A DNA stretch of 64,000 nt from an uncultured Piscirickettsiaceae bacterium. Lineage in GTDB: Bacteria; Pseudomonadota; Gammaproteobacteria; GCF-002020875. Each line of letters opens with the position of its first letter. The stretch's first letter is position 1. The notes below the pieces were generated by a model that did not search any database, was not told the origin of the DNA, and was given only the letters and a program-made list of their open reading frames with translations. Positions 51,760 to 52,476 of the stretch are shown piece after piece. The stretch is from the NCBI GenBank assembly GCA_964415865.1, contig CAYQBY010000001.1, positions 26,277-90,276 of the forward strand, read 5' to 3'. A program made the position numbers and the translations under genes.

Positions 51760-52476
51760 ATGGGACTACTAACTAAAATAAAAACCATATTGGATAAGAG
51801 GGATACTCCACGTCCATCCGATCAAAACCATGATGAACCAATTGATCTAGGGGAGTGGAGTTTTGATAACGAACACGACCTGGAGCTTGATGATATTGAT
51901 CTGGCGGATAGCAGTAGAGAGCCAGTAGATGAGCTGTCTCAAGATGGTGGTATGCCAGAGTCAGTTGATGATGTTTATGTGGGTGACTCTACAGAAGAGA
52001 TCGGTCTGGCTGTAACCTTGACTGTCATGGCCAAAGAGGACGACCATTTTGAGGGAGGGGATCTGTTACGGGAATTTACTGCAGCAGGGTTGGAGATGGG
52101 AAAAGAGGGACTCTACCACTCATATTTCGCAGACTCATCACGAGGACGATCTTCCGGGCAACAGGAGGCACCACTGTTTACTGTAAGTAATGTACTGGCT
52201 CCCGGAGTATTTGATCAACAACAGATCATGAATCTCAGAACCACAGGAATAGCCCTGTTTTTCCAGTTGCCAGGTGAGCATTCTGGCAAACAGGCGTTTG
52301 AGAAGATGGCTGAGACAGCGCATAAACTGGCTGTGGGTCTTGGGGGGCAGGTTTGTGATGAGGAGAGAAAGCCGCTGACTCCTCACTCCCTGCAACAACT
52401 GCGGGATCAGGTTTACGAATTTGAGTACAACCAGGAGCTGGAGAGTCGCAGGGCCGCCATTGAGCAGCCAAAATAG
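51760..52476 (+). CDS. zipA: ZipA homologue (FtsZ-binding C-terminal domain) lacking N-terminal transmembrane anchor
   Basis: C-terminal about 140 aa collinear with E. coli ZipA FtsZ-binding domain ([36 protein letters not shown]); acidic linker; no hydrophobic N-terminus and in-frame stop 6 nt upstream. Confidence 0.8.

Follow-up and report, generated by a model that had tools for sequence, protein, structure and literature searches.

A ZipA orthologue with an amphipathic N-terminal helix in place of the transmembrane anchor, conserved in a lineage of uncultured sulfur-oxidising gammaproteobacteria

ZipA is the textbook integral-membrane tether of FtsZ, and a bitopic topology counts as one of its defining features. 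SepF, the FtsZ anchor of Gram-positive bacteria, cyanobacteria and archaea, begins with a membrane-targeting amphipathic helix, continues with a flexible linker and ends in a domain that binds the FtsZ tail. E. coli ZipA has been separated from its own anchor in the laboratory: in the engineered sZipA, residues 1-25 are replaced by His6, and the cytoplasmic part, held on nitrilotriacetic acid (NTA) lipids, tethers FtsZ and organises dynamic vortices, and a chimera in which the transmembrane segment was exchanged for that of DjlA was also built and expressed (PMC6016244). Here we describe a gene on a 64,000-nucleotide stretch of DNA from an uncultured Piscirickettsiaceae bacterium (contig CAYQBY010000001.1; the whole stretch analysed is called the window below), which is a zipA orthologue by both its domain and its gene position. 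Its product has no transmembrane segment, its start is authentic, and it belongs to a single, lineage-wide clade in which the N-terminus is conserved as an amphipathic segment. The gene and the parts of its product are as follows.

51760..52476, + strand: zipA-like gene without a transmembrane segment, ATG start, 238 amino acids plus stop
51763..51801, + strand: amphipathic helix, residues 2-14, a candidate membrane-targeting sequence, from the hydrophobic moment and an AlphaFold2 (AF2) model
51802..51999, + strand: acidic disordered linker, residues 15-80, from its composition (35% Asp plus Glu, 3% Lys plus Arg, 11% Pro plus Gln)
51829..51867, + strand: clade-specific short linear motif inside the linker, residues 24-36, from alignment A1
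52012..52410, + strand: ZipA C-terminal FtsZ-binding domain, residues 85-217, from Pfam PF04354
52411..52473, + strand: conserved extension of the last helix, residues 218-238, within an AF2 helix spanning 208-235

That the C-terminal part of the protein is the FtsZ-binding domain of ZipA, as a sequence-only reading of this DNA had proposed, was confirmed at the levels of profile, sequence and structure. PF04354 (ZipA_C) was matched over profile positions 3-128 of 128 (E = 7.6e-34, 116.8 bits, cut-off 23) and was the sole Pfam match of the 238-residue protein at E <= 0.01. A phmmer search of the Protein Data Bank (PDB) retrieved E. coli ZipA (1f47/1f46, E ~7e-14), and BLASTP against E. coli K-12 ZipA gave 27% identity over 158 residues (E = 2e-18). 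The AF2 model, built on nine homologues, had a predicted local distance difference test (pLDDT) score of 82-94 across most of residues 85-217, and the ten best PDB matches in a Foldseek search with this model were all ZipA (E ~6e-13, target template-modelling score 0.80-0.88), with 1y2f, 1f46 and 1f47 at the top (0.82-0.88) and scores of 0.87-0.88 for 1y2f and 1f46. In a pairwise alignment the last helix extends ~11 residues past the end of E. coli ZipA, and the columns of E220, F221, E222, E226, L227, E228 and R230 in this extension are invariant in alignment A1.

No transmembrane segment was found in the 238 residues, in agreement with the same reading, the best 19-residue Kyte-Doolittle mean being 0.9 as against 2.88 for E. 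coli ZipA. The 0.9 peak falls in the first beta-strand of the ZipA_C domain. A lipoprotein or signal-peptide anchor was also considered and rejected, as the N-terminus has no hydrophobic core and no Cys occurs in residues 1-40, C199 being the only one in the protein. Whether the start is authentic was judged from the upstream DNA, where the gene is flanked as follows.

48235..51753, + strand: smc (chromosome condensin SMC), Pfam SMC_N 7.1e-66, SMC_hinge 7.6e-13
51751..51759, + strand: smc stop codon TAA (51751-51753) and 6-nucleotide spacer tcgaca, read directly
52479..54497, + strand: ligA (NAD-dependent DNA ligase), Pfam DNA_ligase_aden 2.4e-100, with OB, ZBD, HHH_2 and BRCT domains

The in-frame stop six nucleotides upstream, directly after smc, is indeed present as had been read, so that only two sense codons (TCG ACA) separate the smc TAA from the zipA ATG, and the same arrangement is found in the closest orthologous locus, L010 (4992-5003), from a metagenome-assembled genome (MAG) of Candidatus Thiopontia autotrophica. 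The gap from smc to zipA ranges from -1 to +31 nucleotides in all eight loci inspected, window included, and in the six junctions compared in detail the nearest in-frame stop lies at most 66 nucleotides upstream of the zipA ATG. The smc stop shares the zipA frame in the window and L010 only and is out of frame in L006, L008 and L009, so the in-frame relation looks incidental. In L009, the locus with the 31-nucleotide gap, a GAGGAGG Shine-Dalgarno sequence stands 8 nucleotides upstream of the corresponding ATG, and codons 1-11 of the window differ from those of L010 by two synonymous changes only. The closeness of the smc stop, this Shine-Dalgarno sequence and the synonymous-only divergence together support the annotated start as the true one.

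An index of the assembly collection lists the exact 238-residue protein (P0001) in 110 blocks. It was seen in unrelated projects (ENA SCRA20-1 and SUTE22-1; JGI 3300009126 and 3300007514), and its context was the same on every contig. An indel or assembly error, against which the sequence-only reading had advised a check, is excluded by this recurrence in independent assemblies together with the transmembrane-less start in eight orthologous loci. A hidden transmembrane exon, a frameshift or a mis-called start was likewise ruled out, because in each of the eight loci smc occupies the upstream DNA and because the open reading frame (ORF) recurs in many assemblies, as was a read-through fusion of SMC and ZipA, because the in-frame relation to the smc stop is not conserved.

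The absence of the anchor is a property of a whole lineage. Searched exhaustively with HMMER, 1.84 billion cluster representatives yielded 4388 proteins with ZipA_C at E <= 0.001. All the homologues that are 46-79% identical to the window protein (P0002-P0013, L001 and L020) are without a transmembrane segment, the distinct full-length relatives of this kind numbering thirteen, and 132 of the 146 retrieved proteins outside the clade have an N-terminal hydrophobic segment that starts no later than residue 30. Neighbour joining on the domain, done as a quick distance tree with no support values, places the 18 transmembrane-less sequences in one clade, whose successive sister groups are the transmembrane-bearing P0017 and then P0016, P0019, P0092 and others. 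The transmembrane-less proteins are therefore one clade nested inside transmembrane-bearing ZipAs, and the orthologue comparison bears out a lineage-wide, monophyletic character; the simplest history is that the N-terminus was replaced once, in the clade ancestor. The closest named genome, that of Candidatus Thiopontia autotrophica (BS-GSO2), carries the 79%-identical member, and a 'Thiotrichales' MAG from Saanich Inlet carries a further one. Candidatus Thiopontia autotrophica is the Black Sea sulfur oxidiser BS-GSO2 (PMC8359478).

The possibility that ZipA without a transmembrane segment is common elsewhere was not supported: three candidates outside the clade were checked, and all turned out to be artefacts with a transmembrane-coding piece upstream. 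In P0047 (L011 1223-1441) a run of N splits off an upstream MDNLRIILLICGVVLLAGIYIW piece, in P0040 (L015 2551-3633) the start was mis-called and a GTG-initiated ORF begins MNDLRLILLGVGVILLAAIWLW, and P0052 (L014 150-356) carries a frameshift on a 1.2-kb contig. These three cases call for caution in surveys of ZipA topology that use predicted proteomes. Full-text literature searches, which do not cover all journals, returned no description of a natural transmembrane-less ZipA.

Another departure from the usual domain layout was seen among the retrieved proteins, namely tandem ZipA_C domains behind an N-terminal transmembrane segment in P0014 (874 residues, three domains at 97-236, 398-540 and 733-873), P0015 (685 residues) and P0020 (669 residues), the latter two with two domains each. 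Such proteins would be multivalent binders of the FtsZ tail; we know of no earlier description of them.

In place of the transmembrane helix, residues 2-14 form an amphipathic segment whose hydrophobic face consists of L3, L4, I7, I10 and L11, with K6, K8, K13, T5, T9 and D12 on the opposite polar face. This segment has the highest 11-residue hydrophobic moment of the whole protein (0.645). The best 10-mer of the window N-terminus scores 0.66 and the clade ranges over 0.58-0.82 (12 of 12 N-termini scored), compared with 0.55-0.89 for the targeting helices of MinD, FtsA and SepF, taken as a reference set. The N-terminal residues diverge within the clade, yet the hydrophobic moment is maintained. 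P0011 and P0012 start with MGLLD(K/R)LFGK, close to KGFLKRLFGG of E. coli MinD, and in L020 (MMSFLEKIKQTF) the amphipathic pattern is visible by eye. The clade N-termini agree with the general form of such targeting sequences, in which a helix 8-15 residues long at one end of the protein combines a high moment with an aliphatic or aromatic face and flanking basic residues. The amphipathic helix that the sequence-only reading had offered as an option is accordingly found conserved across the clade, and it may bind the membrane.

The linker that follows is acidic (net charge -22 over residues 15-84) and is modelled with a pLDDT below 50 for residues 14-79; its content of Pro plus Gln is 11% (residues 16-80) as against 37% in E. 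coli ZipA. Relative to L010, residues 37-80 carry 17 non-synonymous and 6 synonymous changes and are gapped at 9 positions, and since non-synonymous changes and gaps prevail, this part of the linker is fast-evolving. Amid the diverging linker, the motif at residues 24-36 shows three synonymous and no non-synonymous changes in the same comparison. The consensus of the motif reads H-(D/H)-x-P-I-(D/N)-(L/I/F)-x-E-(W), in short form H-x-x-P-I-D-L-x-E-W, with I28 and E32 invariant in alignment A1. Every full-length member of the clade has it, P0006-P0008 without the Trp, and no match was found in the retrieved transmembrane-bearing ZipAs except a partial HDPID in P0021. It may provide a new contact within the divisome. 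The idea that it mimics the FtsZ tail within the protein by lying in the groove was unsupported, the pLDDT there being ~38.

A juxtamembrane E-x-x-W-(M/R/L)-(D/E) motif was noticed in several transmembrane-bearing sisters (P0016, P0092, P0019, P0118, L022 1102-1944 and L023 1036-1974), ~10 residues past the transmembrane segment (for example KEERSWMDIK). A kinship with the E-W-x-x-D stretch of PIDLxEWSFD is conceivable, but the resemblance is too weak to claim.

The FtsZ-binding groove was mapped with the residues of E. coli ZipA that contact the FtsZ peptide in 1F47. Of these, F269, N247 and V199 have unchanged counterparts in the clade, the changes at I228 (to Leu, Phe or Ile), M248 (to Val) and I268 (to Leu) are conservative, and A246 is replaced by Ser, Gly or Cys.

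On balance, and with some reserve, we favour the explanation that the zipA orthologue of the Thiopontia/BS-GSO2-like lineage is a peripheral FtsZ tether, in which the bitopic transmembrane anchor has been swapped for an amphipathic helix of ~12 residues. Helix 2-14 would insert its hydrophobic face (L3, L4, I7, I10 and L11, flanked by K6, K8, K13 and R14) into the cytoplasmic face of the inner membrane, with reversible attachment. The 65-residue acidic disordered linker would hold the FtsZ-binding domain off the anionic membrane, and the conserved ZipA_C domain would capture the FtsZ C-terminal peptide. A membrane-targeting helix, a flexible linker and an FtsZ-tail-binding domain in this order would amount to the SepF/FtsA logic on a ZipA fold, and the HxxPIDLxEW motif probably recruits a partner protein. 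A peripheral tether of this kind is feasible, because the cytoplasmic part of E. coli ZipA organises FtsZ when held by a His6/NTA anchor (PMC6016244).

Several points weigh against a peripheral tether. The AF2 helix, at residues 3-15, has a low pLDDT of ~53; low confidence is usual for helices that are induced by lipid. The helix is short, the net charge of its best 10-mer is only +1, and single helices rank only in the top 0.2-10% of their own shuffles. The match to the TIGR02205 equivalog, over profile positions 95-284 only, reached 109.2 bits and stayed below the cut-off of 119.65, which is consistent with the generic name, 'ZipA C-terminal FtsZ-binding domain-containing protein', that NCBI gives to the 79%-identical Candidatus Thiopontia protein. 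With the transmembrane anchor and the linker rich in Pro and Gln, the equivalog score is the third canonical ZipA feature that the protein lacks. In the groove, M226, a contact of the FtsZ peptide in E. coli, is replaced by Glu, Asp, Ser, Gly or Gln, polar or acidic in character, and its equivalent is also Asp or Gly in some transmembrane-bearing ZipAs; M226 has been named as a residue of the canonical site (PMC8669495). With the groove largely kept and M226 changed, binding of the FtsZ C-terminal tail by the clade domain is likely but not certain. Neither ftsZ nor ftsA nor a second zipA lies in the window, which is the part of the genome in view. Finally, membrane binding, FtsZ binding and a role in the division ring are here predicted from sequence alone.

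Some of these points would suit a soluble protein instead, which could be a cytoplasmic, Zap-like modulator of FtsZ or a competitor for its C-terminal peptide, with FtsA alone anchoring the ring and the N-terminal helix serving self-association or contact with another protein. The missing transmembrane segment, the strongly acidic linker, which anionic lipids would repel, the modest positive charge of the helix and its low AF2 confidence all agree with such a protein, and many bacteria divide with FtsA as their sole anchor. But the basic residues beside the Leu/Ile face of the N-terminus are kept in proteins of 46-79% identity in spite of residue change, the moments lie within the range of proven membrane-targeting helices, two members nearly match the MinD motif, and a purely soluble protein has no evident use for an amphipathic helix. 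We consider a soluble role, in either form, unlikely, while still giving it real weight.

Anchoring might also be provided in trans, by an integral membrane or divisome partner that reads the HxxPIDLxEW motif, the N-terminal helix or both, so that the transmembrane segment would have been outsourced to another gene. The distribution of the motif, found in every full-length clade member and matched in none of the retrieved transmembrane-bearing ZipAs apart from the partial HDPID, and its stronger constraint relative to the neighbouring linker are in line with this idea. It is weakened by the loss of the motif Trp in P0006-P0008 and by the lack of an adjacent candidate partner gene, the queF-smc-zipA-ligA neighbourhood being identical to that of transmembrane-bearing relatives. 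Anchoring through a partner is compatible with a peripheral tether rather than exclusive of it, and as the explanation in its own right it is doubtful.

A bolder version of the peripheral tether can be proposed, in which the loss of the transmembrane segment and the gain of a two-part N-terminal module, helix plus motif, produced a reversible and regulatable adaptor that couples the Z ring to a lineage-specific partner. Membrane residence would then depend on lipid composition or membrane potential, and, with zipA so tightly coupled to smc in translation, the partner of the motif could conceivably be one tied to chromosome segregation. We regard this as quite improbable and speculative; if true, it would be natural proof that the ZipA transmembrane segment is dispensable and would add a new divisome interaction. 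An artefact or decaying gene, whether through frameshift, indel, a mis-called start or read-through fusion to SMC, is hardly credible, since the fate of the three candidates outside the clade and the shared frame of the smc stop in the window and L010 are outweighed by an upstream smc 3' end with no transmembrane-coding piece in any frame in eight loci, by an identical ORF assembled independently many times, by an N-terminus conserved as protein under synonymous DNA change, and by a frame relation that is lost in L006, L008 and L009.

The wider locus keeps the order smc-zipA-ligA in the window, L001, L006, L008, L009, L010 and L012, and also in the transmembrane-bearing L015. The sequence-only reading had called this position conserved as in enterics; the order holds here, but in E. 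coli K-12 the neighbourhood is cysZ / zipA-ligA with no smc, and it is the orthologous position upstream of ligA that is shared. In the transmembrane-bearing L022 and L023, where only the smc-zipA adjacency was checked, zipA abuts smc as well, so the tight smc-zipA junction is common to transmembrane-bearing forms. The spacing of smc and zipA suggests translational coupling, and ligA begins 2 nucleotides past the zipA stop. A tblastn search of the window for a second ZipA_C copy matched only the gene itself. The likely start of smc is ATG 48235 (MRLKTLKLAGF, 1172 residues), which matches the gene calls on identical contigs and the orthologue in L001. The mechanical ORF runs from TTG 48139, and other callers and orthologues use 48235 or an intermediate Met (1185 residues); the first 32 codons of the mechanical ORF (48139-48235) are probably untranslated.

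Downstream of ligA, on the minus strand of the window (54500-55092), a CoA_binding_2 ORF (54500..54994, 164 residues) overlaps a 61-residue YgaP-like transmembrane ORF (54907..55092). In different assemblies of the same sequence the CoA_binding_2 gene is called with 164, 136 or 98 residues, with or without the small transmembrane gene, so the starts of both are uncertain. More distant clade members carry genes with EAL/CZB and GGDEF domains, of cyclic di-GMP turnover, directly 3' of ligA (L008 7816-10213; L009 8543-9706; L012 7963-10390), and these are not present downstream of ligA in the window or L010. Elsewhere in the window, a t44 RNA (Rfam RF00127, 47.1 bits, gathering score 44) at 14415-14509 on the plus strand extends into the beginning of the mechanical ORF 14451..15425, the head of a long run of ORFs on the same strand, and is probably a known leader element.

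That the FtsZ-binding domain and the gene position were kept while the transmembrane segment was exchanged indicates that evolution can alter how ZipA is anchored, here by a probable convergence on the solution of SepF and FtsA. The clade is thereby a natural test case for whether ZipA must be permanently integrated in the membrane. The exchange also accounts for the merely generic names given by annotation pipelines, and it concerns uncultured sulfur-oxidising bacteria that are abundant in oxygen-deficient marine waters. It is a conserved and mechanistically suggestive departure from a textbook topology, within a family and an anchoring principle that are both well known.

With E. coli ZipA (PF04354, TIGR02205, 1F46/1F47) the clade proteins share a homologous C-terminal domain encoded directly upstream of ligA and the same layout of an N-terminal membrane element, putative here, a disordered linker and a C-terminal globular domain. 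They differ from it in having a 12-residue amphipathic helix in place of the transmembrane helix, an acidic linker of ~65 residues rather than one of ~160 residues rich in Pro and Gln, the HxxPIDLxEW motif, a replaced M226 and a TIGR02205 score below the cut-off. The working architecture matches that of SepF, with a hydrophobic moment of 0.66 in the window protein against 0.63 for SepF. However, no match to SepF (PF04472) appeared in the Pfam scan and the top fold matches are all ZipA, so that the likeness is confined to the architecture and the likely mode of action; nor is there any sign of SepF-like ring polymerisation in this clade. The targeting sequences of FtsA and MinD are likewise short amphipathic helices with a Leu/Ile/Phe face and flanking Lys or Arg, but they are C-terminal, whereas the clade helix is N-terminal and is joined to ZipA_C rather than to an actin-like or ParA-like ATPase, so no nucleotide switch would act on membrane binding. 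The clade proteins would thus resemble SepF and FtsA in their working mode while being non-homologous to them. A functional precedent is sZipA, in which the cytoplasmic portion of ZipA is held peripherally on a lipid surface, as would be the case here; but sZipA and the DjlA-transmembrane/ZipA chimera are laboratory constructs, whereas the anchor of the clade would be natural, gene-encoded and conserved throughout a lineage.

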